Source of the DNA: Psammoneis japonica
Lineage: Eukaryota
DNA: 64,000 nt
Direction of reading: 5' to 3'
Assembly (NCBI GenBank): GCA_008632985.1
Contig: QPGO01000015.1
Location: forward strand, 497,998 to 561,997
Position 1 is the first letter of the stretch. Every line of letters begins with the position of its first letter. The notes under the pieces are model-generated. The model was not told where the DNA came from. It saw nothing but the letters and a program-made list of their open reading frames with translations, and did no database searches. Of this stretch, positions 2,929 to 64,000 are shown one piece after another. Position numbers and translations under genes: made by a program.

Positions 2929-3139
2929 CAATTGCTATGTATTGCGTACCTACTCTCGTCTGTGGTGGTTGGGACTTCGGGCCTAGTTTGCCGCAGCAAA
3001 TGCTCTGTTCATCGAATTCATCAAGACTCTAGAGCTGAAGCTCGCCTGGAAAACCCCCACAACAGATAGAGATGAATAGTCGTAGATCCTTTTAAGTTTG
3101 CATGAACACGTACTTGTCGAAATTGAGTTACCTTTTCGC

Positions 3140-5970
3140 TGACCAGCTTGGTCAGCAACCATGGACAGCTCATTTGAGCCATGCCATGTTGACTCCAGGA
3201 GACGGTGCATCCTCATGGTGGCTTGTTCAACAACACACATGTGTCGGGTGTGGCGAAGAGGGCAGGCACAAATGCCAGCCACACAAGAAACAACTGTGTC
3301 GGGCCAGGCACAGAGGGGGCAGTTGTGACAGCTGTTTGGTCAGGCATGTTGTTCATCAGGACACGTGACGGAGGCAGCTGTGGCAGCAAACTGTGCTGTG
3401 CATGGTCTTGTGAGTGTTGTCAGAGGAACCAAAAAAACTTGGGAGAGATGAAGGTGGCAGTCATGTGGCATTTGTTGATCACAACCCAACATGGCTGACT
3501 TCTGGTGCTGAGCTTCTGGATCCAAACCACTTTCAGAGCTGCTGCACAACTTAACCCCACCCTTCAGCTGGCCTTGGTGCGACTTCTCTCAATCAGAAAC
3601 AGCTTGCAATGGGGCAAAGAGCAGCCAACCACATCCAATGAAAGTTGAAAACAAAAGTTGCAGTTGTGGAACATCTCCAAGTGTCACAACTGTGAACCCA
3701 AACAACAGTCAGCGGATGTGGCCTGGCAGATGCTCACACTGTTTCCAGAATTTGCTTGCACATCCATGCAGCCACATGTGCGCACAGCTTCACCACTGTT
3801 TTTATCTTTCCTGCCACTTGGCATGGGCATGTTCAATCAGCGCCCAATGGAGTGGCAGCATCTCAGGAGTGGGAGCTCAAAGAGTGTGTCATAAAATGTG
3901 CATTGATGTGCCAAAGTGCCCCCAATTCTGCACAAGAGCAAAACTTGTCTTGCTTTGGTGCTGTGGGTGGAATGATCTGCTTTCATTGCTGAAGCAATGC
4001 TTTGCTGACATGCTTGTGACATCCCTTTCCACCTGTGCAGATGAAGCTCTCTGGGGAGTGGCATTTTGTGGTTTACTTGCACCTCACCTGTGTGTGTTTG
4101 CTCCCATTTTCTTGCTCTGCATTTCAACAGTCTCCACTTGACAAGATTTCTCCAGAGCTCTTGTGTGCTCCCATCAATGGCAACAAAGTGGGCTTGAACA
4201 CACAAGAGAAACAATCACTTGTCTGCAACTCAACGAACTTTCTCCAAACACATCACCAAGCCGGTCATTGCTTCCATTGATTTTTCCCATGATTCAAAGG
4301 CATCAGACTTGGGTTCCATGCTGTTGGATGCATTGCAGTCAATGCAAGTGACAAACAAACACTTCCCTCTCAGCATTTTTGTGTGTCCTTCAGATGATGC
4401 ATGGGTGCAACGTGCTTTGGCTTTGCCCTCACCCATGGAAAAAAGTGCTGTGATTGTGCCCCCTGAAACAATGCTGGGTCAAATCATGCATGACATCCTT
4501 GACAAGCACTCTGATCTGCCAAGGTTGGGCAATCAACCACCATGATGCAAGTCCTTTGCAAGGACATGGCAAGAGGCAGGCAGCCAACAATGCATTGTTG
4601 CACACCCTCGCAGCAGTTGCACATTGTCTCAAGAGACATTCTCTGGAGCAAAGAGCCATCTTGATGTGGTGACACCACCTGCAAAATGATGCTGGTGCAA
4701 GGCTTGAAGATTGCACAAGAAAATTCACAAATTGACCCAAAGATGCAGAGATTTGCTTTTTGCCAACAAAGGCACAGAGTGTGGCACAACAAACCAATTG
4801 TGTTTGGTTGGCTCACATCTGATTTTCAACTCTGTCTTGTTGGGCCAGGAGCTGCCTTGAAAAGCTGCTCTTGGCAGCTTTGAGTGCCCCATGAGATCCC
4901 CACATTGGCTTGCATCACTTGTGTGCATCTCCTGTCCCCTGCATTGTCTCTGTCAATGGCAGTCTGCAAACTTGGGCTGCTTTTCTCTCTGATCAAATAA
5001 TCTTTCAACAACAAAACCACCCCACTTGCACAGTGCTCATCTGGCAACAATGAACAGCAGAAGCTGAGTCCAGCAAATGACTTCTTTTCCCATTTCAACC
5101 CATGTTTTGGCATGCATTTTGCTGAGCTCCCAAAATTGTGCACCTGGTCTGCAACAAGCACTGGGCCATGTGACAAAATGTTGTCTTGGGTGTTGATGAA
5201 AAGGATTGCATGAGAAGTTTGGTTTGTCAAAGCCAGTGGTGTGCCAACCTTGTGCAGAAAAGCTTTTGTGAACACTTTGGGAAGCTGAGCTTGTCAAGAA
5301 CTCCTGCCTTTTCAAAGCAAACACCATGCAAAAGTTGCCATTGGGGAGAAGAAGAGAGAGAGAGATGTGGCACAAGCACAACTTGAAGCTGCTCCATGGG
5401 GCCTTGCCAATGCTGTGTTTGAAATTGTGGGTGGGGTGGGGGGGCACCTCATCTGCTGGGGGTGAAATTCACAACAAAAATGTCCACGTTAACACTTTGT
5501 CTCCAGTGCACAGAAACTTTGACTTGCAAGGACAGAAAGACCAAAAAAAGCTGCAAGCAGGTGTCATCTTTGGCAAAACAGCATCATGATTGCATGGATG
5601 TTGCACCACACTGCTTTCCAAACAGTGCAGTTTCTGACTCTTTTCTTCAGTGTGCTTTTGGAGCTTCTCTGCTTTCTTCTCTTTCAGCACTTCACATCAT
5701 TGTTCTTGAAGCCACTCTCAAGTCAGCTGACCTTCATTTTTTCATGATTTTTGCTTTGTGCTTGAGAACTTTGTTGGCACATTTCTCATCATTGACTTGT
5801 TCTTCTGTGGCACAATGAATGAGCCTCCTCTTTTGCATTGCCCAACATCTGAACACTGGCCCCATTTCCATCTGCTTGATGCTGCACATGCACTGCACTT
5901 GTTCAAAGGCTGATTTGGTCTTGAGAACAGAGTGGATCACTGGCACCAAAGGAACAGCAATTGCCAAATG
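3140..5970. mobile_element. Heavily decayed repeat/transposon remnant(s), family not assignable
   Basis: Near-complete loss of CpG and TpA, Cys/His-rich spurious ORFs, no recognisable domain. Confidence 0.5.
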
Positions 5971-6315
5971 TGTTGGAGCATCTAGATTGCAGCAATGCAG
6001 AGAACCGGATGTGTTAAAGAGAAGATGTTGAAGATCTGACATGGTGGATTTGGCGACTCTTTACATTCAGATTACATTGTCACCAATCTCACTCACCTTC
6101 CAGTTTGTCTCGCTCTTAAGAGTGAATCATCTGGGTTGCAAGAATTGCATTTTGGCATTGTCAAGTGCCTGTCATGTGGTGAGTTTGAAGTTTGCATGAA
6201 TTGACAACTTTCTTTGGGCAAGCCACAGCCACCAAAGCAGCCAGGGCACAAGTGTGATGAGTGGCACAGGAAGCTTTGCAGAGGGCTCCCTTTTGGTGAC
6301 ATTGACTTGCTGGTT
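5971..6315 (+). repeat. Putative 5' LTR of the copia (copy 1 of 3)
   Basis: About 350-bp module beginning TGTTGGAGCATC, homologous to 16035-16387 and 18411-~18700. It lies directly upstream of the gag remnant. The 3' end is approximate. Confidence 0.65.
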
Positions 6316-8384
6316 TGCAAAGAGTCACAAGCACTTTGTTCAGTGCTTGTCACAACTGACCTTCACGCAGTCATCTGACATTGAATCCCTGCACAACATG
6401 AGTGGCAGAGGATGAGAAAGCAGAGCAAGTGGTGGAGGCCAACAACACAACTGAGGCAGAGGTGACAGAGGTCACAAGTCTTCCAACAACAACAACAAGA
6501 CCAAACCAAAGAAAAGCTTTTGACCCGAGATGAAGTTTCATCCTTTGTCACTGAACAGCAATGCTTGCAATGCAACACATAAAGACATCAAATCAAAGGT
6601 CATCAGTTGCATTCAGAAAGAATGCAAACAAGGCACACATCCAGTGAGATCCTCGGAAGACATGAAGCACAAAGATTTCATTGCCAAGAAACCTGAATTG
6701 GGTGCACCCAAGTCAGAACTGCCAAAGACAGACTGCCACACTGAGATGGAAGCAAGACATCAAGACAAAAAAGAACTGGAACACAAGTGCAAGGCTGAGA
6801 TCCATGACTGCAAAAAAAAAAAGCTTGAAGAGAACAAGACCACTGCATGTGCTAAGATCCCAGATGACCACTGCACCAAGTCAATGAAGCAGAGAGTGCA
6901 GGGCAATCCCAGTTGCTCAAGTGCCAGAGATGATTGGACAGAGCTGCTCAAGCTGATGCAGTCCCTTGTGCTTGACTCAATGAGAGGTTGACACCCATTC
7001 CATGCACTTGCCAAGTCTTTGAAGCACATGTTGGAAGTGTGAAGCAACAAGAGAACAAATTGCTGAATGATTGCCTGTCAAGATTCAAGAATCAGCAAGA
7101 TGCTGCAAGCAACAGTTTGAGAAGAAAGATGCCAGCTGGGTTCATTGAGAACACCAAGGAGTGCAAAGATGGCAACTCAACAGCCCAGTCTGACCCAAAG
7201 GCAGCAGCACATGAGACATGGGCAACACATCTGTTCACAGAGAACAGCGACAATTGCTTCTGCCAGAGTTTGAAGAAGAGCTTCATGAGAGATTGCAGTC
7301 TGGGGAAGGACATGCACCCAAAGACCCTGGACAAGGCAATCAATGCACTGCCAAATCATCCAAATGACAACAATCCCAGCTGGAGACCAGTGCATGGCAT
7401 GCATCTGGCAAAGGTCAAGGTTGACCTGTCCCCCAATGCAGGAGTGGACACCTTGGACAAGCACCATGCCTGGATGGGGTGACATGAAGCTTGGATTGCA
7501 GAATGTGATCGTGAACATCCTGAGTCCGAAAGATGTGAAAGACCCAAATGAGTGCTGCATTGCTTGCAATGACCAAGTGGTGGACAAATTCTGGCTGCTG
7601 GATGAGAGGACTGGCAAGCAAGTCATGCGGTGTTCAAAGCAAATGACATTGGACTGCACACCTCTGCACTGAGCCAGTGGTTTTTTGACTGCATGAAAGA
7701 TCTCTAAGAAAGTGAGATGCATGTGTGCATGCTGTCAAAGAAGAAGACAAAGAAACAGACCAACAAGAAGCACAGGAGTGCATCTAGAATCACAGCTCCA
7801 ACAGCAGAACAGAACAACACAGGCTGCACCAAGAGAGAGGTGGCAAGTGCTGACTGGGCACTCAGACTGTGTCATGAGCCTGGAGCACCCAATGTGGCTG
7901 AGGGATTTCAAGCTGTTTTGTGATCCAACCAGGCGAAGAACTTGTCCATCACACCTGAAGATGTGAGCAGGATGGTGGCCATCTGGGGTCTGCCAACAGA
8001 TGCAATGAAAGGCAAGGCCAAGCATGCACGTCATTCCCATGAACAAAGTTGTGACATTGCAGCCATGCCACCTGAGATGTGTGTGATGCAGACAGAAGGT
8101 GCGATGCTCTTCATTGATGCCATGGAAGTGTGTGGTGTCAAGCTGCTGTGTGCAATGGACAAGACAATCAAGTGCCAATTGAGTGTGAGACTGAGGTCCA
8201 AGAAGAAACATGACAGTGTGTTTGAAGCACTGGACATGATCCTCTGACAGTGCAACATGGCCCTGATTGAGATTGACTTTGTTGAGTGTGATCCTGAGTT
8301 CAAGGAAATGCTGCTGGCAAAAGTTGCTGCTGGCATGAATCTGGAGCTGATTTCTATGAACACAAAAGACCATGTGCCCGAAGT

Positions 8385-9600
8385 TGAGCGGAGCATGCAG
8401 ACCATCAAAGAGCAAATGCAGGCCACTCCTGTGCACCATGTGCCACACAAGATGACAACCAAGTTGATGTGTGAGCATGCCATGATCAAGAGTGCTGCAT
8501 TTCAAACAAGTGCCCAGAAAAGCAAGGGATTTCTGACATTCACAGTCCGTGCACTGTTGTGCAATGAAGGAACCTCAAACACTTCCAGCTCAGGTTCAGG
8601 GAATTTGTTGTTTCTGACCCAACAAACACCATGGATGCACGTGGTGTTGACAGCATCATGTGCCTGTGACCGCATTTTGATCTGCCCAAGGTTGGACACT
8701 GCACAACGAAGCTGCACATGGGGAAGCTGTTGAACCCCTGCAAGTGTGCCTCCACACCCCTGACTGACATGCACACACAGGCAGTTTGAGAAGATTGCTG
8801 TCAAACAAGGCATCAAGGAATTTAAATTCATGGGTGAATGCAAAAAAATGATCTGCATGACACTGATTGGACTGCAGCAGTGGACAACAACAAAAGTGGC
8901 AAAAGCAATGGCAGGAAGGATGAATGCAAAGACAATCACAATGATGTCAACTGCATGACCAAGTCCAACAATGAAGACCATGTGCCAAAAGTTGAGTGGA
9001 GCATGCAGACCATCAAGGAGTGAACTCAAGCCACCACATGCCATGTGCCACACAAGTCAACACCCAAGTTGATGTGCAAGCAAGCCACAATCAACAACGC
9101 TGTCAGGTCAAATGTGCACCCACCAAAGGAAGGGATCTCCAACACTTGCAGTTCACACACTCTCATGCAATGAAGGAACATTAACTGTGACAAACACTGC
9201 TGGTTCTGGTTTGGGGAATTTGTGATTTCTCATGTTGAGAATGACCCAACAAATGCCATGGATGCACACGGCATTGACAGCATGCACCTGCAACCATGTT
9301 TTGACCTGCCCAAGGGTGGACACTGCACCATGAACCCACACACAGAGAAGCCATGAACTCCCACAAGTGCACCTTCAAACCCCTGACCAAAATGTTCATG
9401 CAGGCAGTCAAGAAGATGGCCATTGCACAAGGCAACAAGGAGTTCAAATTTGCAAGTGAACACAGAGATGATCTGCACCATGCTGATTGGACTGCAGAAG
9501 TGGACAACAACAAAAGCAACAGCAATGAAAGCAACAGTGAGGACAATTGCAAAAACAACCACAATGATGTTGACCACATGACCAAGTCTGACGATGAAGG
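8385..9600 (+). repeat. ~600-bp internal tandem duplication of the integrase C-terminal region
   Basis: aagaccatgtgcc..gttgag.ggagcatgcagaccatcaa occurs at 8386 and 8974. gattggactgcag.agtggacaacaacaaaag occurs at 8866 and 9485. Confidence 0.85.
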
Positions 9601-10404
9601 TTGCAAAGAAGATGAAGCAAACTCAGATGAGGAACACAAAGAAGCAAATGAGATTCCACACAATGGAAGATGATCCAGCCCTGATCAAAACAGCATGACA
9701 TCCAAGAAACAGAAGATGAAGACTGTGGAAGTGAAGAAAACAAAGATCATGAAGATCACAAGGAACACAATGAAGCCACAGAATCACAAGATGCTGACCA
9801 ACCCCAACAAAGACAACAGATGGGAAGAAGAAAGATTGGTGGAAGTGGCAAGTGGCATGCCTGGCAGAGCAATCAGGAGTGGTGCCAACTGTTCTGCATT
9901 CTTCAACATGAAATCAAGCAAACACATGGATGAGAAAGTTTGATTTGCAGAAGTGGCAGACACTGACAAAGTGAAACAAGAGCACAACACTCTTGAGCAC
10001 TGCCATCATTTAAGAACAAATGTGAGCCCCAATGCAGAGGATGACACAATGTGAAATGGAGACAGCAACAGTGCTTGCACACTTCATGTGTGAGATTGAT
10101 GACCAAATCTGAAGAGGAAAGGGTGTGTCTTTTGCCCAGCAATGTTTGTTGCACAAAGGCGCCTCAAAACATTTGGCCAGAGAGGACATGATGCATCAGA
10201 GAAAGAAATGAAACAACTGCATGATTGAGTGTGCTTTGCACCAGCATCAGTCAAGGATGCAACTCCAACTGAAAAAACCAATGCATCAACAGCAGCCTTG
10301 ACATTCCCAGCCAAGAAACATGATGGTCACATTAAAAGGTGAGTGATTTGCAGTGGGAAACCAACCTGAGAATGGCCAGACAAAGATGAGCCAGCCAGCC
10401 CAAC

Positions 10405-10680
10405 TGACAGAAATTGAAGGCAAATGGCAAGAATTCAAACAACAACTCCTCACTGCTGTCTAAATGGCAGATGAGTCTCTGCTCAGAGACCGTTGCAGGA
10501 GCCGAAAGACGTGCAAGTTGGTACAATCGGGCTACTGTTGTTGTTCTTGTGAGCCTTGTGGCTCGAAAGCAAACTACATTGTGCGCGAACGCGCGGAACT
10601 AAAGCACACAAAACTGTGCGCGGCAAACTAAACAGCGCGCAATGTTTCGCGCGCACCCAAATCCTGTTCAAATCCTGTCA
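10405..10680 (-). repeat. 3' LTR of the nested element
   Basis: 276 bp, 14 substitutions versus 13721-13996, no indels. Confidence 0.95.
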
Positions 10681-10746
10681 CTCCCCAGTTTGCTTGAGGA
10701 GTCACAGAAACAGATTCGACTTCGGATTGACCAAAGAACTTTGGAG

Positions 10747-12768
10747 TCAAAGCACCAAAACATGAGGAGACAAGAAAGGATCAAGATCCGAGAGCAACGT
10801 TGCATTCTCCAAGTGGGTCATCTTGAGATGAGCTGCATCTCCCCAATTGCAGATGCCGTTGTGCTTTTCAAAGCTCAAGGCACACTTGGGATCTTGTGGG
10901 ATTCCACATCCGCACTTGCAATGGAAGGAGCAAAGCTTGGTCTGGTTGACAATGTTGAACGGCGGGGCAACATTGCAGGCGGCATGGCGTTTGCATGACT
11001 CGGGGAACAGAGCAAGCATCAGTTCAAAGGCACAAGTGGTGGTCTTGTGTTCCACCAATCCGACTGCATCTCCTGAGAGACTGATCCAATTGGAGAAACG
11101 AGTCTCAAGGTGCAAGCCTTCGGGGATCGGATTGGAGCAAGACATCTTGTGGTGCAAGGCTGCAGATGTCTGATTGGGGCAACCAGTCCCGTGCTGCAAG
11201 ACTTCTGGGATCCAAAAGGACTTGCCAGTCTTGTGACACGAGTCTTCGGGGATCCAATCAGGAGGCCAAGTCTTGAGGTGCGAGACTTGGGGGATCCAAT
11301 CAGGAGGCCGAGTCTCGTGGTGCAAGACTTGAGGGATCCAATCCGGAGGCCGAGTCTTGAGGCATGAGACGTGGAGGATCCAATTGGGAGGCCCGGTCTC
11401 GAGGCACGAGACGTTTAGAGTCCAGTTGGGAGGCCTGGTCTCAAGGCACGAGACTTGGGGCCTGGTCTCGAGGTACGAGACTTGGAGCATCCAGTCAGGA
11501 GGCCTGGTCTCAAGGCATGAGACTTGAGGCATCCAATCAGGAGGCCTGGTCTCGAGGTACGAGACTTGGGGGATCCAACCAGGAGACCTGGTCTCGAGGT
11601 ACGACACTTGGGGCATCCAATCAGGAGGCCCAGTCTCGAGGTGCGAGACTTGAGGCATCCAATCAGGAGGCCTGGTCTCGAGGTACGAGACTTGAGGCAT
11701 CTAATCAGGAGGCCCAGTCTTGAGGTGCGAGACTTGAGGCATCCAATCAGGAGGCCTGGTCTCGAGGTGCGAGACTTGAGGCATCCAATCAGGAGGCCTG
11801 GTCTCGAGGTGCGAGACTTGAAGCATCCAATCAGGAGGCCTGGTCTCGAGGTGCGAGACTTGGAGCATCCAGTCAGGAGGCCTGGTCTCAAGACACGAGA
11901 CTTGAGGCATCCAATCAGGAGGCCCAGTCTCAAGGTGCGAGACTTGAGGCATCCAAAGACAACGAAGCTGCTTGGATGTCCTGAACTCCCCATCTGATGA
12001 ACCGGTTGAACTGTTGTGAACAGATTCAATGATGGGAAAAGGAGGCTCCCCATCAGGAGATGCGAGAAGCAAGTTGTCATCTCCATCACTTCCCAAACGA
12101 AGACTGTGAAGGGTGACAGCGGTCGACACATGGAGGTTGGCAGCACGTGGTTTGCGGGGTGCAAAGACTGCAGCTTTGGAAGCCATGGGTGGAGTGTCCC
12201 AACTGGTCTCGAAGTGCGGGCCTGTGCAAGGGCTGCAATCCTGCACTGGGCCGAGGTTGCTTGCAGGCGGGTTGGTCAAGACATGCGGGGCGCGACTGAC
12301 ACCACTTCTGGGGGACACCTGAGTGGTGGCACAGTGCAAGGCTGGTGTCAAAATGGCACTGGGTTCACCTGGTTTGGATGGCAAGGGACTCGGCACAGGT
12401 GCGGAGGGTGCTGCGCCAGTGGCTAGAGAGGTCAAGTAGTCCGGACCAAGGCGGCAGTTGCGAAATTCCTCGGGTGTGAGCAACCGGGGTTCATTGGTCA
12501 CATCATCACCGTTGCAAACTTTGACAAAGTAGAAGCTGATCAAAGCTGCTGGGAGGTTTCTGTGGGTCCGTGGCAAAGGCACTACATTGGCGCCGTCTCT
12601 GTAAGTGAGGGCGTCAATTTGGGTGGGTAAGAACATGAACAATTCCTCACACGATTCAATCCCGTTGATGGACAGGGCAGAACGAAGAGGGCTGTCATCT
12701 TCTTGATTGAGCACAGTGCCTAGAATGCATTTGAAGCTTTCGGTTTGTTGCTGTCGCGTGAGAACCAT
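10747..12768 (-). pseudogene. Copia gag-like ORF with a 14-aa tandem-repeat C-terminal region; one in-frame TAG at 11701-11703
   Basis: MVLTRQQQ...ILGTVLNQEDDSPLRSALSINGI...IDALTY...LTPEEFRN resembles diatom copia gag N-termini. ORFs 11701-12768 and 10747-11700 are in the same frame, split by TGG->TAG in one repeat unit. Confidence 0.7.
11090..11955 (-). repeat. 42-bp tandem array (PPDWMPQVS[Y/H/C]LETR), about 20 units, degenerating toward lower coordinates
   Basis: Plus-strand unit gagacttgaggcatccaatcaggaggcctggtctcgaggt(a/g)c. Confidence 0.95.
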
Positions 12769-13720
12769 GACGGAGGACGGTGCAGTAGAAACAAAAGACA
12801 GGAACCAATCTAGAGCGTGATCTTGACTCGGAGTTTTGACTTGGAACTTGGCTTGAAAAAGACTTGACTTGAGCTAGACTTGACTTGAAATCTTGGACTG
12901 TCTTAAAATCAGAAGTCGCCGGGCTGCACTATCCCGTTGGTTGTCAAGTGCTAAACTTCCTGTCCGGTCCGTAGAGTTGTGCCAGCACGTCCGAACCCGC
13001 AGCCAGCGGCACTTTGGGTTGCTTGCGAGCGGAGCAGCGGGTTGCAAACCCCTGCAGGCAAGCTGACCAGAGGTGGACAAGACCCCCGAACCGTTCTTGT
13101 TTTGTGTCGGTTGGATTTCCCGATTGGGCTGGCCAGTTGACGTAGGCGCCAGGCGCTGTGGACGAACGAACAAACGCGGGAAAACACCCTCGCCCCAACG
13201 TGGGCTGCAATCATGGCTGCTTGCTCTCACAGTCATCCTCGTGGACCTGGCAGAACTGCAGAGCACCAGCAGTCCGGGGTAGATCAGGTACAATGGACTC
13301 GGTGTGCTTGTAGAGTGGCAGCAAAACCGCGGTCCGAAGAGTGGGCACAAGTTCTTGGCCGTGAAGACATGTGTGTGCACATGTCTTCAGCGACGAAGAT
13401 CCTTGAACATGCAGGGTTCTTGACCGTTAACCGATGAATGGGTGCATCAAGGGATGAGGATCAAGGACAGACTTGGACATGACCGTTGATGCATGTCTTC
13501 AGCGATCCAAGGCAGCATGATCAATCCAGATGTCCAGCGGCAAGGAGACTTGACGGTGACGTTAAATTCCTGCCGATGCCTGGCATTGAACGCGCGCAGA
13601 CTTGCCGATGTATGTAGAACACACACGGAGGTCCACGCAGAATTGAAGCAGCGTCGTCGGTAAATCAACGACGACGATGGCGGTTGCTCAATGGGTTGAC
13701 AATGAGCAAGACTGTCAATC

Positions 13721-13996
13721 TGACAGAAACTGAAGGCAAATGGCAAGAATTCAAACAATGGCTCCTCACTGCTGTCTAAATGGCAGATGAGTCTCCGCTC
13801 AGAGACCGTTGCAGGAGCCGAAAGACGTGTAAGTCGGTATAATCGGGCTACTGTTATTATTCTTGTGAGCCTTGTGGCTCGAAAGCAAACTACATCGCGC
13901 GCGAACGCGCGGAACTAAAGCACACAAAACTGTGCGCGGTAAACTAAACAGCGCGCGATGTTTCGCGCGCACCCAAATCCTGTTCAAATCCTGTCA
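13721..13996 (-). repeat. 5' LTR of the nested element
   Basis: Direct repeat of 10405-10680, upstream of the gag-like ORF on the minus strand. Confidence 0.95.
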
Positions 13997-16034
13997 CCAA
14001 CAGCATCCTCAGAAGGAACATTTGTGATGGTGATTGCAGATGCTGCTGAAGAGCATGATGTCATGAGCACTGATGCACACCAAACACATTTGTGCAAACA
14101 ATGACACCAGAGCCTGACAAAGGCAAAGACCAAATTGTGATGAAAGTTGCAGGAGTGTTGGTTGACATGCTTGCGAGCATTGACCCCAACCCATGTGGAC
14201 CACATGTGGTCCTGGAAAAAGGCAAGAGAGTCCTTTCCATCCAAGTCATTGGAGCCACAATTGCAAAGACTTGGAGAAGACAAGGTTTGAGCTCAACCCA
14301 TGTGATCCATGCATTGCCAATCAAACAGTTGGTGGCAAGCAGCGCGCCATCCAACTCCATGTGGATGACCTCATGGCAAGCCTCAAGAGCCCAAAAGCAA
14401 ATGACAAGTTTTAAGCTGGTTGAACAAGGTGCATGGAAGCCATGGCAAAGTCATCTCTGTGCAAGAGAAGAGATGTGACTGTCACAGCATGACCCTGGAC
14501 TTCAGCCACAAGGGCAAGGGGGGGAGGCCAACATGACCAAAACTGTGCTGGCAAGATGATCCGTCAGTTTCCAGAAAAGATTGAGAATGCAGATGCTGCC
14601 ATGATGATGCCAGCAGGTGAGAATCCATTTGACGCCAGTGGTGCAAGCAGAGAAAGCACAGATGTTCCACACACAGGTGGCCAAGGGACTGTTTGCACCC
14701 AAGAGAGGTCATGTGGATGTGCACCCCCCGCTGTTGTGGCGCTGTGCACATGAGAGTCAGAGAACCTGTGAATGAAGATTGGGAAAAGTCAGTCCATTGT
14801 CTCAAGAGCATGAACCGGGCAAGAAACCAGCCACAATCTGCTGTGGCTGCAAATGAATGTTGACCATGTGCAGCAATGACTCGTGTGAGCTGTGCACATG
14901 TTGCAACATGATGACAAAGGCATGGCCACCAAACTGCTGGCTGGATTGCCAAGAGAGACTTGCAGGTCTAAGCAACACAAGAATGCAAGAGATGATGGGT
15001 GCAGATTGCATCAGAGCATTGGGAGAGTGCAAGAGGTGGGTTGAGAGCAACTGGAAGATGCTGGCTTTTGATCTGCACCTGCAACAAGACACTCTGGATT
15101 TGCGGGAGGTGTTGTTCACCACAAAAAAAAACAAAGACAGAAGACCCAGATCTTACACTGCCTTCCTGTTGGGGGAAGCCAGAGTTGTTGGGCCTGTGGC
15201 AGGGCCGGTGGCAGGGCCTGTGGCTGGGCAGATGCAAGTTGATGATGCAAGTGCATGAAGAAATGGTGGCACAATGGAGTTTTGAGACAGTGGAGCACAT
15301 GTCTGCTGCTGCACCTGTGTTCTCCATCTGTTGTGATTGAAGAATGACAAATGAGGAAATCAAGAGACAAGCCAATGAAGCTCCCCAGACCAAAGAATGT
15401 TGGTGGATTGTTGGAAGCTGAGCCTCAAGGCAAGGCAAAATGTGCTGCAATCAGCAGCAACCTGGCAATGAACAGTGCCTCAAGGACAGGTGCATCACCA
15501 GATCATTGAGCAATGAACTGCAATTGGCCATGAGCGTGAGCAACATTCAAGACCCAAGTGGAAAGTCAAATGTTTGCCTGCCCACATGTGGCATGGACAG
15601 GAATGGGGCACGCGGCACCCTCATGAAGTTCATCAAGTGCCCCAATCCTGATGTTGTCATGACTCATTGTGAGCTCATGAGGGACAACGATGGCATCATT
15701 TGTGATGTGAGAAAGTTGGCATCATTCTTCCACTGTGATTTTTGCAAGTGGTGCTGCAGAGAGATGGAGTTCTTTGACTTGACTCCCCCCAAAGCAACCA
15801 GCAACTGGGAAATGGAGGATCTGGCCAAGGAGTGGGACAGTGAATTTGAGAAAGAGAAACTCTGACATGGTCATGTGGAACATTTTGTGAAGCATGTTCA
15901 TGACATGACACACTCATTTGATGATGTGACCAGATGTTCTGACAATGGGCGGTGCGCCAGCTTTTGTGTTGCCCATTTGAGGGACAATTGTCAAGAGGTG
16001 GATCAGAAGAACATTGTTGAGAGCAGCAGGAGTG

Positions 16035-16387
16035 TGTTGAAGCATCTGGATCATGGGAACACAGGGAACACAGAGAACCCAGACATGTTAAAGAGAAGAT
16101 GTTGAAGATCCTGACATGGTGGATTTGACGAATCTTGCATTCGGAATGCATTGTCACCAATCTCACTCATTTTTCAGCTTGTCTTGCTCTTTGGAGTGAA
16201 TCGTCTGGTTTGCACAAATTACATTGTGGTGTCAGAAGGTGCCCATTTTGTGTTGCAAGTTTGAATTTCATCAAGAACTTCCAAGCAAACCACTGCTGCC
16301 AAAGCAGCCAGGGCAAGTGCAACAAGTGGCACAGGAAAGCCTTGCAGGATTCCCTTTTGGCAACATTGACTTGCTGCTGGTTCAACA
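16035..16387 (+). repeat. Copia LTR (copy 2), TGTTG...CAACA
   Basis: Preceded by AGCAGGAGTG (PPT-like 'RSVL' junction). Homologous to the 5971 and 18411 modules. The exact 3' end is uncertain. Confidence 0.7.
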
Positions 16388-18700
16388 TCAAGTGGATGGC
16401 ATGTGGGCATGCCAGAAGCTTGGCATCCAAAGCAGCACAGAAGCTGAACTTGTTGGAGTCAATGATGCCATGACTGTGATGCTGTGGACAAAGTTGTTCA
16501 TGGAGCACCAAGGGCATCCAGTTGACAAGAATGTCCCTGTGTCAGGACAAAAAGAGTGCCGTGCTGCCTGAAGCCAATGGGTGTAAGAGTGCCGGCAAGT
16601 GGTGGTCCAGAGCACTCAACATTTCAGCTTTTCTTTGTCACCAATCAGATCAAGAAGGGCAATCCAAGAGCCCAGTGCTGCACAGCTGTTGACATTCTTG
16701 GAGACTTCATGATGAAGCCTTTGCAGGGCAAGATTTTTGAAAGCTCAAACGAGCCATTGTGGGCTGTTAACTTCAAGCACAAGTGTTTCCTGTTCTTTGT
16801 GACATTGGACAAGAGTTCTGACGCATGTGGGTGAAAGATCCCTGCAACCCAGTGAGGGCACTGAACCAAGAAGTGGTTCAACCAGCCACAATCTGTGGCT
16901 GCACCAAATGAACATCAACCATGTGTGGTGACAACTCATGCGAACTCTGCATGCATTGTGACATGATGACAAAGGTGTGGCCAACAAGCTGTTGGCTGGA
17001 TTGTCAAGAGAGACTTGTGGGTCTGAGCAACCCAAAAACACAAGAGATGATGGATGAAGATCACAGCACAGAGCAATGGAAGTGTCGAAGAGGTGGAATG
17101 AGAGTGACCAGAAGAAGACACCAACTCTCAATCCACACCTCTCCACCACCACACCCTCTTTGCACCCAAGTTCAGATGGAGACAACCTGCCATCAGCATG
17201 GCCACCAACAAACATGGCCACTTCTGGATTTGATCCACCTGGAGGAGGGCACCTCTGAGCCAAGATGACCTGTTTTGGGCTTTTTCACTGTGACCAGTTT
17301 TTTTCACTTTCTCACTTTTTCTGGCTTTGTTGGAACAGGAACATTGATTGCTGTGACTGGACCACAGCCACTCCAGCTTGGGAAAGGCTTTGTTGGAAGT
17401 GGCGGCTTGCGAAGTGTGTGCTCGAATCCTTGATGTGCACCAGGTGCTGGACTTTGTTGAGAAAATGAAAACAGAAGATCCAAATGTGGTCACACCTTTC
17501 CATTGGGGGGAGCCTCAGTCATTGAGCCTGTGACATGGTCTGTGGCTGGGCAGATGCAAGTCATTGATGCAAGTGCATGAAGAAATGGCACAGCGGAGTT
17601 TTGAGAAGGTGGAGAGCACATGTCCACTGCTGCACCAATGTTCTCCATCCACAATGACTGGAGAAGTGCATGTGAAATTAAGAGACAAGCCAGCGAAGCC
17701 CCCAAAACCAAAGAACATTGGTGAATTGTTGGAAGCCAAGCCTCAAGGCAAGGCACAGTGTGCTGTCCTCTGCAGCAACCTGCTGGCAATGGAGAGCTCC
17801 TCAAGGACAGGTGCATTGCCTGTTGCAGCTGGCCCTGAGCAACAAGAGTGACATTCAAGACACACATGGAAAGTTGGGTGTTTGCCTGCCTGCACATGGC
17901 ATGGACAAGAAAGGTTCATGTGGTGCCCTCACAAAAAAGCTCATTGAGAGCCCTGATCCTGACATTGTCATCACTCATCATGGGCTCATGAGGGACAAGG
18001 ATGGCATCATTTGTGACACAAAGAAGTTGGCATCATTCTTCTACCATGAATGTTCACCTGCATGGAAATCACGTGAGTGGCACTGCAGAGAAATGGAGTT
18101 CTTTAATTTGACTCCTCTGAAGCAATCAATGGTTGGACAATGGATCTGGTCAAGGATCAGAACAGCGAAAACAAGAAAGAGCAACTCTGTTGTGATTGTG
18201 TGGAGTGTTTTGTAAAAAGTGTGTTTGTGACATGACACACTCATTTGATGACATGACCAGATGCTCTGATGATTGATGGTTCACCAGCTTTTGCATTGCC
18301 AGTTTGAAAGATGATTGTGAGGAGGCAACCAAGGGGATGTGTTGTTCCTCAAGACAGACCAGGAATGATCTTGTTGGAAGAACATGTCATTGTGAGCGGC
18401 AGCAGTGGTGTGTTGGAGCATCCAGATCATGGGAGCACAGAGAGCCCCAGACATGTTAAAGTCAAGATGTTGAAGATCCTGATGTGGCGGATTTGGCAAC
18501 TCTTCACACATTTGGATTTTATCATCGCCAATCTCACTCACCTTTCAGCTTGTCTCACTCTTTTCAGCAAATCATCTGGCTCACAAGAACTGCACTGTGC
18601 TGGTGTCACCAGGCACCTGGCCTGTTGTGACACAACTTTGAAGTTTGCATCAACAACTTCTGGGCAAACCACAGCCACCTGAGTGGCCAGAGCAAGTGTG
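16388..18700 (+). mobile_element. Second, 5'-truncated copy of the same copia: RNase H, 3' extra region and partial LTR (18411-~18700)
   Basis: QKLGIQSSTEAELVGVNDAMTVMLWTKLFMEHQG and DILGDFMMKPLQGKIF are copia RNase H motifs. 16879-18410 is homologous to 14825-16034. Confidence 0.8.
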
Positions 18701-19310
18701 GTGTCATCACCACAGAATGTTCTTGTGCTCCTGTTGTTCTTCTTCCAAAGAGCATGCTGCACTTGTTCTTGGGTTGACATCATTTTGATGAAACAAGCTC
18801 AAAAGTTGTTGTTGTTGTGCAGAATCTGGCACCACAGTGTTGTTTTGTGAGCCAGCATGTGGTGCAATGGCCTCTGGGGCTTGCCTTTCAAGCAGTTGTG
18901 TTTTCTTCTCTCATGAACAAGAAGGAACAAGCAAAAGCTCAAAGCCCATGACGGAATGTGTCGAGCACGTCTCCAACACTAACCCAGAAGTGGGCTGCCA
19001 AATTCATTGGCCTGGGAGTGCTTGACCTGAGTGTAATGTCGAGGGACGCTGCCAAAACAATTTTTTGCGTCGTGTCGTACGTACGGTAATGTCGTACCAT
19101 ACGTACCGGTACGTACGGCGTACGTCTGCCGCAAAACATCGTCTGTCCGACGCAACGGAAAAGATCGACGACCAGCACCGCCCGACCACCCGCCACACCG
19201 ACCACAGAACTGCCGTCGATCGACCACCATTTTCATTTTCCATTTTTGCAGTTCCAGGAAGACTTCGAATTCGTCAAAAGAGCAACAAAAGTACAAGTAA
19301 AAGCATCGCC

Positions 19311-21889
19311 ATGGGTCGGGGAGGAGGAGCTGTTGGAGGCATCGCAACAGGTGCAGGATCGAGAGTTGATGTGACGCTCAAGCTCCCGCAACTTCAGAAT
19401 TTCTGTAAACGGGATCCTAGGGGGTATCGCGAAGACTACGATGCGCAGATTCGTCGTTTGCGAGCAGAGTGCGACATTCTGGCGCTTTCTCCGTCGTCAG
19501 AACCCTCGCCATCTCTTGTAGAGCTCATTCAGTTTGCTGCTGCTGTGTCATCTTCGAGTTACAAGGGAGAAGAGGCGGATCGTATAGCTGACTTGCTGAT
19601 CGATTTGCTTCTTGGTTCAACCTCATCGTCAGCTGCGAAAGCTTCCTTAGCGACCAAAAGGGGACCAGTTCAAATGACCATGCCCTCTGCTGCTCTTCAA
19701 CTCCATCGTGATGTGCGTAAGGCCTGTGTGTCGGCCTTAATTTTGATGCGAAACAAAGGTGCAGTTCCACCTTTGAGGTTGTTGGAGCTCTTCTTCAGGA
19801 TCATGGCGGTGGTGCCTGACAAGGCTTTGCGAGAGTTACTGTACCGCCACATCGTCAATGATATCCGAAATATCAACAAAAAGGGCAAAAAGGACGAAAA
19901 AGTTAATCGCTCAATTCAATCCTTCTTGCATCGTGTTGTCTCCTCCCAGGACGACGTATCCGGTGGTGACGAGGAAAATGCTGCTGATGTGGCTGCCAAG
20001 AGAGCTACTGATATGGTCTGTGAATTGTATAGGAGGAATGTTTGGACCGATGAGCGCACCGTGGCTATTCTGGCGTCGGCGTGTGAAAATCGCAACACCA
20101 CCGTCATGTGTAGAGCGATTCGATTCTTTCTCAACATTGAAGAAAAAATGGCGGAAGATAAACAACGCGAGGAAGACGATGATTGGAACGGAGCTAATCA
20201 GATTGACTTCCATCAACATTCTAAAAAGACAAAGGTGGGTATTGCAGTCTGGAATGCATTGAGCGTTAACGTGTCCGTTGACTGTGCCCTCTTACTTATT
20301 ACGTTTTCGTTTCGAAGGCACACAGGCGACAGATAGAAAGGCAGGTCAAGAATAGAAAAAAGATGCAGCTGAAACGAGAACAGTTGGAAGCTGATAAAGT
20401 TGATAAAGGAGTTGAGGCATCCAAGAAGCTATACCCCGCCATTGAAATGCTTCGTGATCCTCAGGGACTTGCAGAAGCTATCTTTAAGAGGCTTCGATCC
20501 TCGGGTTCATACAAATATGAGGCCAAGCTACTAATGCTGAATTTCGTTACACGGCTGGTCGGCAATCACGAGCTCTTGTTACTCCCGCTCTATCCTTTTC
20601 TGCAGCGGTATATGGGTGGTCACCAGCGAGATGTCACAGCCGTCTTGGCTTACTGCGTTCAAGCCTGCCATGAGTATGTCCCACCGGATGAAATCTATGG
20701 TATTCTGAAAACGATTGCGCACAACTTTATCACCGAACGTTGCTCAGAGGAACAAATGGCCGTAGGTATCAATGCAGCGCGGGCGATTTGTGCTCGTGTT
20801 CCGTCTGTGTTGTCTCTAGAAGACAGCGAAGAAAGTACTGGTAGTACGGTGATGGACGTTGAGGCCTTTGCTCGAGATTTGGCTGCCTACTCCAAACACC
20901 GAGAAAGGTCGGTATCCATCGCTGGACGCGGATGGACGAACTTTATCAGGGAAGTGTATCCGACTCTATTACAAGGAAAAGATCGTGGTGCAACTGGATC
21001 GGCGCTTCATCGGGCAGGGGAGAAGCCTCTTCGGTATGGCGAACGAAAGGTTGCTGCTGGTGTAGCGGGTGCCGACTTGCTTGTGGAATATGAAGCGAAG
21101 AAGGCCAAGCACCGTCAAATGGAAAAAGATGGATTGCTGGATGACCAGATATCTTGTAGCGATGACGATAGTGATGGAATTCGTACAGAGAGAATGAACG
21201 GAGACAATAATTCTGGAGAGGAAGGTGAAAATTGGGTTGACGTCGACCAAGAAACGGATGGGGAAGATGACGTTGCCCCTCATCTTGTCTTGTTGGGTAG
21301 TGACGATGGAAAAGTTCGTGTATCCGACACTGATGGTAAAGGCAACAAAGAAGCAGAAACCCTGGATCTTTCAAAGCTGTCTGAAGACGAGAGAAGGAAA
21401 TTGCAACAAGATGTATCCTCAACTCGAGTATTCACAGTCTCCGACTTTGAGAAGATGAGGAAACTAGTGGAGCGGGAGGAAAGAATCAAAAAAGACCCTC
21501 GCGCAGCAGCTCGTCGGAAGCGAGCCATAGCTCAAGGGAAGGAATTTGACGAACTCAGCGACGAGGATAGCGAGTCTGATACTGATGACGAAGTTCACAT
21601 ATCTGGTGCTGTGAATCCCGCCGAAATCATGGCCGATGCCAAAAGGAAGCGAATGAGCAAGGCGGAGAAACTGGAGACAGTTATAGCAGGCCGCCAAAAG
21701 TTTGAACAGAAACACCGAGAGGGTGGGTCAACCAACGTGGAAAAGAAGCGTAGGAAGAATTTCAAAATGACTCAATTCAGCTACGCAGCGCGGCAGAAGA
21801 GGGGTGCGAAAGACTCTATGAAAGCGCTAAGGAAACGAAAGGCAGTTGGGAACAATCGTGATGCGAAGAAAAGGAGAAGGAAAGTGTAG
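19311..21889 (+). CDS. SDA1: Protein SDA1 (pre-60S biogenesis); intron 20235-20317
   Basis: LPQLQNFCKRDPRGYREDY, ELYRRNVWTDERTV, AHNFITERCSEEQMAVGINAARAICAR and GGSTNVEKKRRKNF motifs. The GT-AG intron joins the two ORFs in frame. Confidence 0.95.
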
Positions 21890-33539: not shown

Positions 33540-33679
33540 GTTGGATGTTGCGAATGTTGGGATGAATGCAAGTGCGAAGAATCAAATTTGTGAAGAACAA
33601 GATTTTGGTAAAGATTTCATGCTCGTGGCTGGTTAACGACAAGCCCATAGCCCAATCTCTTTGTCTGACTTCGAGCCAA

Positions 33680-33805
33680 AGTAAGCTAAATGGTTAGTGT
33701 AAATCGTTAAGTGTCATTTCCACTTCGACACAAAGAAAGCTAAATGGTTAGTGTAAATCGTTAAGTGTCATTTCCACTTCCATACAAAGACAGCTAAATG
33801 CTTAA
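33680..33805. repeat. 54-bp tandem repeat, about 2.3 copies (also at +2617)
   Basis: agctaaatggttagtgtaaatcgttaagtgtcatttccacttc at 33684 and 33738, partial at 33792. Confidence 0.9.
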
Positions 33806-34249
33806 CGGTAGTGGTCAGATTTCAAAATCTGAGCAATACAGAAATGTCAATGATGAATAAGGATTTTAGATTGCTTCTGCCGTAAATATCATTACGCCAA
33901 TGCCACTAATGAATACACAAATGAATTTGTATTCCATCCTTTTCCTGAACTTTGATCTATCGGCATTTTCGATACGAGTGCTCGACGCGATGACAATGAG
34001 GCATGCTTGTATGTGTCATGGCCATAAGCTGTGAGGCGTACCGTCACATTTGGATTGAACTCGGGGATCTTGATGTCGAAAGTAGCCATTTGTTTGACAT
34101 TCGTGATTTTTCATCGCCCACAAACTGGGATTTCAACTGAGTCGAGTTGATGTTGGACGTGTTTCAAAGCACTGCGTTTGATGAAACAATTGAGGGCTCT
34201 GGAATTATGGCATTTTATGCCATGGAGACTTAAAACAGCAAATGGGTTG

Positions 34250-36200
34250 ACAATCAAGCAGTGATCGGGTTTGCCAACATTTCCAAAAATGTGACAACAA
34301 AAGTTGCATCACTCAACAACCAACAACATCTCAAGAGATGGAAACAAGAAAAGTGACTCCTCTTTGCACTTGAATTAAAAGAGACAACAATGCACAACAA
34401 ACATTTGAGAAGGACAAGAAGCTCTTGAATGCATGGAACCAGAAGAGAGTCAATGAATCGCTCTTGTTTTGAACCTCTTGACCTGTTCTGTCCATGATGG
34501 TGGTTGGCTGAAAGGTTGGTGGTGGTTTTTTTGTGTGACTTGCAGCTTGAGGCATGTTGATGCATGAACACATGGCCCATGTGTGGTGTCACCTTTGGAA
34601 AGTGCCACTTGTGGAGCTTGGGTGGACAACTCTCTGTGCTCAAGCTTTGTCCGCCAAATGCTCCATCAAAGTCCAGATGCTGCCACATCCCACCCGACCA
34701 TTGACACAAAACAGTTCTTGCAAAATGTTGTTGCCTGTTTCCCTCTTCCTCTGCAGAGCAGCCCTCTTGGTGACAGTGCTGCCCACATGCCAGAATGTGC
34801 TCAAGAATGCTTTCCATTTTGCCAGCAAAGATGCCCAACGCGGGCTGTGTGGGCTCGAATCTCTCTCAAGACAAGCTGACATTTGTGCCTGGCACTGGCA
34901 GCAATGCTCAGCCCTCCTTCCTGTTTGACTTCCCAGGAGTGTGCCCAGATCTCCTGCGTGCTGAGTGGCTCAACCACAAGAGTCGCTGTCTTTGTCAGTT
35001 TTGTCAGCAGGATGTGCCAAGGCTGCTCTGGCCATGTGTGTGCAAGGACAGCTGCGACAGCGCTTTCTGCTGTCAGCAAAGAGTGTGAGCTGGCTGGACT
35101 GCCCAACCCCACACTTCACAGCTCCTTGGCAGTCACTCCAAATCAAGTGCCAACTTGGGGTCAACCGCACCTGGCTGGCTGCAATGCAAAGACAGCTGTG
35201 GCAGCACTTTGTGACAACAAAGAGAGTGCGAGCTGGCTGGGCTCCCAACCCCACACTTCACAGCCCCTCAGCACTGGCTCCCAATCAAATGCCAACTTGG
35301 GGCCAATGGCTGTGAAGCCATCATTGCAAATCCCTGTGCCTGCCCCCTCACACAGCTTTGCACAGGGTCAACATGTGTGGCCTTTGCAAGATGGGCCCTG
35401 GCTGGCTGCTGGCTCTTCAGCCACACGGCTTGCACAACAAGCCACCACAACACAGAGCACTGTGGGGTGAGTGCAGCACAGCCCAAACAAGCACACCATG
35501 CTGAGATCACCCAGAGTTGGCTGCTGTCCTGGGGCTCCATTCAAAGCTGGGCTGGGCTGCTTGGCTCCTTGGTGTGCAGCACATGCTTGGCATCACATTC
35601 TTGTTGCCAAGCAGCCACATGGCATGTGCCCACCATTTGTGCCTGCAACAGCGACCCCAGCCACAAAGAAGCCAACAAAAAGTTGAACCTGGTTTTGTGG
35701 TTGAAGAGTGAAGAAACTGTGAGTGAAGTTTGGTTCAAGATTTGTTGGCAATGCCAAGTGCGCAACCAAAGAGAGGCGCCAAAAATGGCTGTTCTTGCTC
35801 ATTTCTCAAGAGGAGCTTGCGCTCATGATGCAGGGTCTGAAGCAAGCACCAGCCAAGACAACAGTTTTTTCTCTCTGCCCCACTTAAAACACAGCCTTTG
35901 AGTCAATGTGGTGCTCCTTCAACAACTCACGCACACTGGGAAGAGCAGCTGGAGCCAGGGCAGCTGGCCTGGCAGGGCTTGGCTGATGCCCAAGCTGGGC
36001 TGCTCAGCCTGGTGGCACACACTCAGTGCCACATTGTCACCCTCCTGCAACTGCAATGTGCCCCACTCTTTGCACCTGCAGCAACCACCCTGGATCAAAA
36101 GAAGCCAGTGCAACTCTGGCCATGGTTGCATGGTCAATTGTGTGTGTGTGTTCAACGGTTGATTCCCCTCTTTTTTTCTCTTTTCCTTTAACCGGCCACG
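34250..36200. mobile_element. Decayed CpG/TpA-depleted element of unknown family (second copy about 36870-38815)
   Basis: Same dinucleotide signature as the copia island, no recognisable domain. Confidence 0.55.
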
Positions 36201-62800: not shown

Positions 62801-64000
62801 AAAACTCTCACTTTTTACACTCTGTGCAGAATTGCAGGCAATGATTGACCCCTTTGCTTGTGACTTTTGTTCTGTTTTGTGGAAGTGCTCCTCCGCTGTC
62901 CATGCCAACAATGCAAGGCAGCAACTGGCTCTGAACTTGTTGCCAACATCTCAGATGCAAGGATTGTTGTGATGTGAAAACAGAGCTCTGACAGCAATGC
63001 GGCACACAGAGATCTCAGACATGACACTTGGACAGATTGCACAAACAGAAATGAGACATTTGAATTGCTCTGTGGTGGAGGAGAAATCCTTCAGAGGCTT
63101 GTTCTTTTCCTTTCTCATGGCAATGATGGCGATCAGCTCAAAAAATAAAGAAAAGCATTTGAGTGTGTGTCACAAAGTTTCAACATCAGGAATTTTGAAA
63201 ACAATGCTGTGGTTGCAGTGCTGACAAAAAGAAGCAAGTTCAGTCATTGAGGTGAGCATGTTGCTTGCCAACAATGGAGCTGTGGAGTGTTCCATGCAAG
63301 TGGATCCAGAGTGAGTTGCCTCTCTTCATGGAGGGTGAGTTGCAGTTTGACACAGTGAGAAAAGCTTGGCTGTCCAACAAAGAGAGCAGCACATCAGGTG
63401 TGCTGCAAGCATGCAACCTTCAGGACAACCTTTTCTGCTTGCCGGTCATGTCATTGAGTTGACAAAGCTGTGGTGGTTGCATTTTGATGCAGCTCATGCT
63501 CTGGGGAATGCAGAGCAACTTGAGTGAAAGGTGCTCAGCAGAGCTTTTCAAGTTGTCAAAGCTTCCAATGGAGGCCACAGGCATTGATTGAGCTTTGAGG
63601 AAGATTTGCTCATTCAACATCCCACGGAGACATGGGCAATCTGATGGGTTCTCCATGTGCCAACACTTTGCAAGCAAAAGATGTCGAAGCTTGGAATGCC
63701 ATCATCTTTGGTGTGGTGACAGACCAAGCAATGAATCCTTGAGAGTCACAAATTGCAACACTGTCCAAGCAGTGTGGGACTCAATGTGGCTGGAACTTGA
63801 AAACAGCCAGCTGTCACCACACCTGGAGTGGCACTGCAAAGGCAAGTCAGGTTCACCACAACAGCTTTCTCTTCTTTTTGGAGATGGTCAGCCTTGTCAG
63901 CTCTAAGTGCTGAGCATTGAGTGCACAGATGCCACTTTGGACCCTCAATGATCTCTTGGTGACTTGAATGTTAGAATGTTGGAGCACTCATTTGGCTCAA
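59900..64000. mobile_element. Heavily decayed CpG/TpA-depleted transposon/repeat island, runs off window end
   Basis: Same signature as the other islands. Family not assignable by eye. Confidence 0.6.

Follow-up and report, generated by a model that had tools for sequence, protein, structure and literature searches.

Loss of TpA and CpG to TpG and CpA in a dead Ty1/copia-type retrotransposon of a diatom-like genome

Introduction

The DNA studied here is a stretch of 64 000 nucleotides of contig QPGO01000015.1 (the window, throughout). It is eukaryotic DNA with diatom-like genes: its long open reading frames (ORFs) match SDA1, the Ufd2 core, TTI1, an IBR protein, a WD40 protein and DUF6824, the last of which we take as a pointer to diatoms. 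Between 6.6 and 16.8 kb lies an element that its relatives mark as a dead Ty1/copia-type retrotransposon, itself split by a nested element with long terminal repeats (LTRs). We put at roughly 0.8 the probability that this element lost TpA and CpG dinucleotides to TpG and CpA after integration, through changes restricted to transposon DNA, and that the TpA part of the loss was enzymatic and targeted.

Diatoms are ecologically dominant algae. Our literature searches found no published report of TpA hypermutation in diatoms; in a term search of the 2009 paper on diatom CoDi elements, as far as its searched text extends, the terms RIP (repeat-induced point mutation), dinucleotide, hypermut-, deamination and TpA were absent (PMC2806351). 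The sole precedent found for mutation that erases TpA is a 2026 preprint on one unrelated alga, Bigelowiella natans (Mettrop et al., bioRxiv 10.64898/2026.01.13.699255).

Materials and Methods

Intact relatives. Residue votes were cast by those 74 of the 120 listed relatives that are intact polyproteins of 1400 aa or more, aligned to the window by tblastn. A window codon was counted as conserved when 20 or more votes fell on it and 80% or more of them agreed; minus-strand high-scoring segment pairs (HSPs) and those outside 6000–17000 were dropped. Stops are penalised by tblastn, so TGA is under-sampled.

Metagenomic control. The same pipeline was applied to metagenomic relatives. Of 216, the 80 ranked highest for similarity to a single query were kept, and HSPs were excluded if they lay on the minus strand or reached 90% identity.

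Composition. Dinucleotide contents are given as observed/expected ratios (o/e).

Results

Identity and architecture of the element

Pfam, run on the three plus-strand frames of 3001–19500 with X in place of stops, detected no transposon domain and had one spurious repeat hit in the nested element, and a word-index protein search with the ORF at 14074–14478 against longer proteins gave no relative. An exhaustive search with that ORF gave 143 relatives. From an intact relative, a further search listed 120 proteins, 119 of them with PF07727. By tblastn the 74 intact relatives cover 6000–10500 and 13500–17000 on the plus strand, and residues 3–1625 of one relative, P0212, are colinear with 6611–16764, the frame changing nine times or more, if the nested element and an LTR-like insert are passed over. 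Another relative, P0124, has a protease-like DSG motif, integrase, reverse transcriptase (RT) and RNase H in that order; in the window element too, by its colinearity with P0212, the integrase precedes RT (order PR-INT-RT-RH). The parts are listed in Table 1.

Table 1. Coordinates of the retrotransposon, the element nested in it and the dinucleotide-depleted blocks of the window
Feature	Positions	Strand	Remarks
5′ part of degenerate Ty1/copia polyprotein (gag, protease, integrase, RT start)	6611–10404	+	P0212 aa 3–1173 aligned to 6611–10405, frames 2,1,2,1,3,3,2
Peptide DCSLGKDMHPKT	7291–7326	+	His CAC at 7315, Cys TGC at 7294
Internal tandem duplication, integrase region	8366–9599 (8366–8976, 8974–9599)	+	72% identity; P0212 aa 745–893 covered twice
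Target-site duplication CCAAC of nested element, left copy	10400–10404	+	Right copy 13997–14001
Nested LTR element splitting RT	10405–13996	+	LTRs of 276 bp, 10405–10680 and 13721–13996
RT continuation	13997–14750	+	NPCDPC 14295–14312, CDCHSM 14474–14491
LTR-like segment inserted in RT–RNase H region	14825–16376	+	Paralogue of 16880–18703
RNase H and polyprotein C-terminus	16383–16764	+	QCCT 16673–16684, FMMKPLQG 16706–16729
LTR-like sequence 3′ of pol	16880–18703	+	Last ~300 bp also match 5966–6312, upstream of gag
TA-/CG-depleted block, left part	3300–10399	no strand	TA o/e 0.04, CG 0.08–0.10, TG 1.9–2.3, CA 1.7–1.9
TA-/CG-depleted block, right part	14002–18951	no strand	Ends ~75 bp before SDA1-like ORF at 19026
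Further depleted block	34100–36000	no strand	Repeated at ~36720–38600 through 99.9% tandem duplication
Further depleted block, reaching window end	60000–64000	no strand	TA o/e 0.03, CG o/e 0.08

LTR-like paralogues of the host element lie at 5966–6312, 14825–16376 and 16880–18703, and the last of these is probably the 3′ LTR. The two longer ones match in three parts (14825–15080 with 16880–17140, 15125–16014 with 17459–18340 and 16012–16324 with 18388–18703), at 70–76% identity as DNA and 88–93% with transitions ignored. Where P0212 has 67 aa, the window has 1642 nt between 14750 and 16392. No full 5′ LTR of the host element was found in the window, even in purine/pyrimidine code, nor was a target duplication.

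The nested element has LTRs ending TGACAG...CTGTCA and a 5-bp target duplication. The RT alignment halts at 10405 and resumes at 13994; the nested element is younger than its host. It contains an internal tandem array at about 11083–11956 and has no recognisable protein domain.

Dinucleotide composition

Four blocks of the window, the leftmost starting at about 3300, are nearly without TA and CG (Table 1). In these transposon blocks TA o/e is 0.03–0.04 and CG o/e 0.08–0.19, with TG and CA both at 1.7–2.3; in the genic DNA of the window the ratios are 0.56–0.59 for TA and 0.97 for CG. The G+C content of the depleted DNA stays near 47–49%. The block edges are sharp, within about 100–400 bp. At the right edge TA and CG are absent over 18526–18952 and dense from 19034, where the SDA1-like ORF starts. 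The last 250 bp or so of this block, 18703–18951, lie past the last detectable repeat similarity, and may be unrecognised transposon sequence or a short spread into the flank.

Stop triplets follow the same pattern. Over both strands of 3300–10385 there are 32 TAA or TAG against 391 TGA, the genic DNA having 439 against 570. The preliminary description of this locus had held that one process inactivates elements while deleting TAA and TAG stops. The near-disappearance of these stops is borne out. The TA and CG changes may have killed the window copy or may have come later; the copy also carries other damage: at least nine frame changes, the tandem duplication, the nested element and the LTR-like insert.

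The block at 34100–36000 belongs to a 2617-bp tandem duplication (33601–38834, 99.9% identity) that takes in the depleted block and its TA-rich flanks. Two 1-bp indels and a single substitution, TG at 35988 against TA at 38605, separate its copies.

Fate of conserved codons

The preliminary description had named several copia motifs in which tyrosine appeared as cysteine or histidine by TAY to TGY or CAY, and had proposed alignment to intact polyproteins with a tabulation of codon fates as the check. Four altered peptides, DCSLGKDMHPKT, NPCDPC, CDCHSM and QCCT, are present where it had placed them, and FMMKPLQG is present too (Table 1). The alignment was run, and the polarity of TA loss given below rests on actual intact relatives, independently of any LTR comparison, as had been claimed.

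The conservation criterion is passed by 450 codons, 287 of them unchanged. Not one of 22 conserved Tyr is retained: 12 are now Cys (TGT or TGC), six His (CAC or CAT), two Phe, one Met and one Ser. The controls were F, W, C, H, Q, N, K, D, E, M and G, none of whose codons can include TA or CG; they are retained at 169 of 229 positions (Fisher p = 2.4e-12). Where a residue was replaced, the new one is Cys or His at 18 of 22 Tyr sites against 5 of 56 other sites (p = 8e-10). The direction TAY to TGY or CAY is thus as first proposed.

Conserved Arg occupies 31 positions, of which nine are kept (seven AGA, two CGN), 13 are now CAN, five TGA, one TGG and three other; CAN or TGN thus stands at 19 of the 31. 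The five TGA support the earlier suggestion of CGA to TGA. In relatives the conserved Arg codons are CGN in 747 of 1326 cases (56%), four partly mutated loci being excluded from the count. Among the remaining residues, Ile has become ATG five times and ACA twice, Leu has become CCA twice and TCA once, and Val has become GCA twice.

At the individual sites, relatives have Tyr where the window has CAC at 7315 (58 of 62), TGT at 14301 (73 of 73), TGT at 14480 (50 of 54) and TGC at 16676 (60 of 66). These four replacements of a copia Tyr therefore stand, and the intact relatives do not carry Cys or His there. The fifth, the Tyr of the 'DYSLG' site (TGC at 7294), is ambiguous, with Tyr in 34 and Phe in 26 of 61 relatives. 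The ATG at 16712, in FMMKPLQG, is consistent with the proposed ACG to ATG, relatives having Thr in 51 and Ser in 14 of 66.

One neighbouring codon needs two transitions: 14474–14476 is TGT (Cys), where 51 of 54 relatives have His (CAY). It would fit CAY to TAY to TGY, a new TA being created by C>T and then erased.

Strand and timing

Over the Tyr and Arg sites together, TG and CA outcomes are balanced (18 against 19), and no strand clustering of outcomes was found among them (23 runs, 19.5 expected). A strand bias suggested by the separate counts (Tyr 12 TG to 6 CA, Arg 6 TG to 13 CA) was rejected, because the stop penalty of tblastn under-samples TGA.

Duplicated sequences record separate outcomes. 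The integrase-region duplicate has 40 TG/CA double differences, which account for 80 of 149 differing columns, and its identity rises from 72% as DNA to 89.7% with transitions ignored. The five paralogous pairs of the window have 40, 46, 14, 12 and 13 such double differences, and identities of 70–77% become 88–93% once transitions are ignored. A double difference of this kind implies a former TA or CG that the two copies resolved each on its own.

The nested element is only partly depleted (TA o/e 0.24, CG o/e 0.70). Its LTR pair, over 279 aligned bases (10404–10682), differs by transitions only, and is 100% identical in purine/pyrimidine code. Visible TA sites are unlike in the two LTRs in 5 of 11 cases, and CG sites in 5 of 22; 12 of the 15 differing columns fall at TA or CG sites, leaving three other transitions and no transversions. 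Because LTRs that were identical at insertion now differ, and because the duplicates were resolved separately, the changes evidently arose in the chromosome, after integration and, as the outcome counts indicate, on both strands.

Preferred target

The depleted blocks retain 51 TAs, of which 29 are YTAR (21 of them TTAA), 15 YTAY, seven RTAR and none RTAY. In the window genes and in relatives the flank baseline is 16–17% YTAR and 29–33% RTAY (p = 4e-11 and 7e-10). Since TAY is read from either strand of RTAY and from neither strand of YTAR, the site favoured by the process reads as 5′-TAY with the A changed or, equally, as 5′-RTA with the T changed.

Changes seen elsewhere follow this rule to varying degrees. 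All five TA changes of the nested LTR pair fit TAY to TGY or RTA to RCA, as do 11 of 13 TA-type variants among genomic copies (by reading of the variant list) and 10 of 14 TA changes in the lineage of one metagenomic locus, L077. The rule predicts more Cys than His at Tyr codons, and 12 to 6 is observed. Trinucleotide gains relative to the relatives agree as well, in a comparison that is weak because these are not ancestral.

Reads and relatives in other data

Contigs of sequencing run X1, built from 31-letter words at depth about 28–39, match 14490–16102 and 16484–18749 with no other letters. An exact match at that depth implies that the letters are not a consensus error. The very abundant LTR family of the nested element varies between TA and TG or CA at 12 of 16 variant places, and two more involve CG.

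Public proteins of other data sets contain the same alteration, with one or more Tyr to Cys or His changes in 16 of 143 hits. Across the metagenomic relatives Tyr is retained at 1339 of 1442 positions, with Cys or His at 40, and control residues at 12846 of 13723; TA o/e in these best 80 of 216 is 0.28–0.83. Partial loss of Tyr to Cys or His is found in loci L064 (10 of 15), L077 (6 of 13), L024 (6 of 20) and L039 (4 of 10). L064 and L077 remain alignable in one frame for about 500 aa, with three stops and none respectively, so there TA loss ran ahead of general decay; their state fits an early hit.

The two losses occur apart from each other in these relatives. L064 and L077 have lost mainly TA, and the environmental copia relatives L021, L059, L057 and L079 have lost CG only (CG o/e 0.12–0.26, TA o/e 0.58–0.76). 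CpG decay without the TA process thus occurs in other hosts.

Along 14490–20500, contig word depth in run X1 is about 28–39 over the transposon region and about 51–63 over the SDA1-like gene. This might hint that the insertion block is on only one haplotype, contig depth being a poor measure. The LTR family of the nested element is hugely abundant in this run: its summed word depth reaches about 4e5, that of the neighbouring gene being about 60.

Discussion

We read the codon changes as the coding read-out of a TpA eraser targeted to transposons. Our explanation supposes two processes. The first would turn TpA into TpG or CpA (A:T>G:C) on either strand, preferring 5′-TAY on the strand whose A changes. 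The second would turn CpG into TpG or CpA, as expected of the decay of methylated CpG. All Tyr codons are TAY and hence would all be targets, a sense-strand change giving Cys (TGY) and an antisense change His (CAY); CGN Arg codons would become Gln, His, Trp or TGA stops, and TAA and TAG would vanish. All other transposon blocks in the window would have gone through the same two processes. Two processes, with the CG part as ordinary decay of methylated CpG, are the simpler reading because TA and CG losses are separable in relatives and unequal in the nested element.

The data above show the direction of change, its action on both strands, its timing after integration, its restriction to transposon DNA and its flank preference. 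Beyond this, for the TpA process we infer, by analogy, an enzymatic and targeted genome defence of the B. natans kind, most simply a DNA adenine deaminase. According to the available text of the preprint (10.64898/2026.01.13.699255), integrated viral DNA of B. natans undergoes de novo TpA to TpG or CpA changes at about 6e-7 per site per generation; nucleocytoplasmic large DNA virus (NCLDV) and virophage DNA are affected at TpA only, with TpG or CpA depending on the strand. It also reports TpA-poor genes enriched in reverse-transcriptase and DDE domains, and proposes an adenine deaminase of the ADAT2 type. As far as that text goes, B. natans and the window share the change of TpA to TpG or CpA, its confinement to foreign or mobile DNA, and low TpA with high CpA and TpG. 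They differ in host, a rhizarian alga there and a stramenopile-like genome here; in degree, with a Rho TpA of 0.45 in the viral DNA of B. natans and LTR retrotransposon blocks near saturation, at 0.03–0.04, in the window; and in CpG loss, which accompanies TpA loss here and is not reported in the preprint's available text. That text contains no flank analysis to set beside the TAY preference of the window, and it gives measured rates where the window offers only the LTR-pair ratio (TA 5 of 11, CG 5 of 22).

Several observations weigh against this explanation or limit it. The system is known here from sequence. With B. natans losing TpA only and the window CpG too, the systems may differ or two processes may overlap. 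The 2617-bp duplicate, at 99.9% identity, retains its TA-rich flanks, with 31 TA in 36000–36700; duplication alone is therefore not demonstrated as the trigger, although the duplicate may simply be very young. Run X1 is possibly the source sample of the assembly and so is not fully independent. No TA o/e below 0.28 was found in the best 80 of 216 metagenomic relatives, which makes the extreme state uncommon in the family. Of 98 changes private to the L077 lineage, only 16 turn TA into TG or CA (the private changes of its three relatives include 1 of 64, 4 of 64 and 3 of 38), and 4 of 14 TA changes in this lineage break the TAY rule. A purine precedes 5 of 6 His sites and 7 of 12 Cys sites, a weak test whose direction agrees with the rule.

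A bolder form of the explanation would have a chromatin- or repeat-guided diatom enzyme deaminate adenine in double-stranded genomic DNA at 5′-TAY, in a defence shared with Bigelowiella from the common ancestor of stramenopiles, alveolates and rhizarians (SAR) and erasing transposons soon after insertion. We advance this only tentatively, and would sooner expect some part of it to be wrong.

Thymine chemistry is an unlikely alternative. Oxidation of T at TpA by a JBP/TET-type enzyme would give 5-hydroxymethyluracil (5hmU) or 5-formyluracil, which pairs with G and yields T>C, alongside 5-methylcytosine (5mC) modification at CpG. 5-Formyluracil does mispair, and 5hmU occurs at TpA in dinoflagellates. 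Both targets are self-complementary pyrimidine-purine steps that end as TG or CA, and the flank rule can equally be read as 5′-RTA with T changed; in sequence A>G on one strand is T>C on the other. Against it, TA and CG were lost at unequal speeds (0.24 and 0.70 in the nested element), and some relatives (L021, L059, L057, L079) lost CG only.

A single deaminase of the ADAT2 type, acting on A at TpA and on C at CpG, would account for the depletion of both dinucleotides in the same blocks with the same sharp edges, and enzymes of this type, editing A as well as C, are cited in the preprint on B. natans (10.64898/2026.01.13.699255). We think it somewhat less probable than thymine oxidation. The losses are separable in relatives (CG 0.12–0.26 with TA 0.58–0.76, and TA 0.28–0.32 with CG 0.66); in the nested LTR pair the share of differing sites is about twice as high for TA as for CG; only TpA is hit in B. 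natans, on the preprint's available account; and transposon-restricted CpG methylation in diatoms, as the consulted sections of PMC9998398 have it, suffices for the CpG loss.

ADAR-like A-to-I editing of the RNA before reverse transcription, so that the copy arrived already mutated, suits a retrotransposon, and ADAR-type enzymes favour a 5′ U by the preprint's available text (10.64898/2026.01.13.699255). It is highly improbable: the strands are hit equally, TA sites are unlike in two LTRs that were the same when their element integrated, and the tandem duplicate within the element resolved 40 sites differently. Differences that arose after integration, on both strands, exclude editing before it. 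The depletion also extends from 18703, where repeat similarity is last detected, to 18951, some 250 bp farther.

We give as little credence to a sequencing or polishing artefact in which modified TA and CG bases in heterochromatin are miscalled as transitions. Some long-read base callers do make systematic transition miscalls at methylated motifs, and the platforms used for the window and for run X1 are not on record. The 31-letter-word contigs, however, match the transposon region exactly at depth about 30, which needs accurate reads; homologous sites in paralogues carry unlike outcomes; Tyr to Cys or His also occurs in proteins and contigs of other public data sets; and the element has frame changes and non-transition differences as well.

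Ordinary neutral decay or selection against TA can practically be set aside: TA is mildly low everywhere (genes 0.56–0.59, relatives 0.28–0.83), but only in dead transposon DNA, within sharp edges, does it fall 15- to 20-fold, to 0.03–0.04; 74% of control residues survive against 0% of Tyr; and in the young LTR pair 5 of 11 TA sites differ against three other transitions and no transversions in the rest of 279 bases.

We return to the two-process explanation and its place among known systems. Like fungal RIP, the changes are made in DNA, are transitions only and are dinucleotide-specific, with missense changes and stops in transposons and neighbouring genes spared. RIP of ascomycete fungi turns CpA into TpA and raises TA and AT, whereas in the window TpA is destroyed and CpA and TpG stand at 1.7–2.3; a duplication trigger, unlike in RIP, is not demonstrated, given the 99.9% duplicate with TA-rich flanks. 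The RID-related DNMT4 is present in many diatoms, with its function given as unknown in the sections consulted of PMC9998398. The CG to TG or CA change in transposon DNA only, with Arg CGN becoming CAN or TGN, resembles the CpG decay of methylated transposons as the same sections present it. That decay is half of the signature; the removal of TpA and the change of Tyr codons go beyond it. The element resembles diatom Ty1/copia LTR retrotransposons in its RVT_2-type relatives and its order of protease, integrase, RT and RNase H, and the nested element does in its 5-bp target duplication; it differs from them in being dead, and so altered that Pfam misses its read-through frames.

The window would thus present a targeted A:T>G:C mutator of transposons in a diatom-like genome, opposite to RIP and documented with an outgroup and controls. 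If the reading as a 5′-TAY deaminase is true, this would be a DNA adenine editor of natural origin that is specific to its context. Such a deaminase would be of interest for base editing, and the 5′-TAY preference narrows the search for the enzyme. There are practical consequences for annotation. Elements hit in this way are invisible to domain searches (Pfam found nothing here), and the removal of TAA and TAG leads to long false ORFs in gene prediction. LTR divergence is unfit as a measure of insertion age, because 12 of the 15 differing columns of the young pair fall at TA or CG sites.

Other features of the window

The depleted DNA at 3300–5966 and 60000–64000 gave no copia polyprotein match by tblastn with the 74 intact proteins. 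The SDA1-like gene to the right of the retrotransposon (19026–21889) consists of two overlapping ORFs in differing frames, 19026–20336 and 20282–21889; a short intron or a frameshift is possible.

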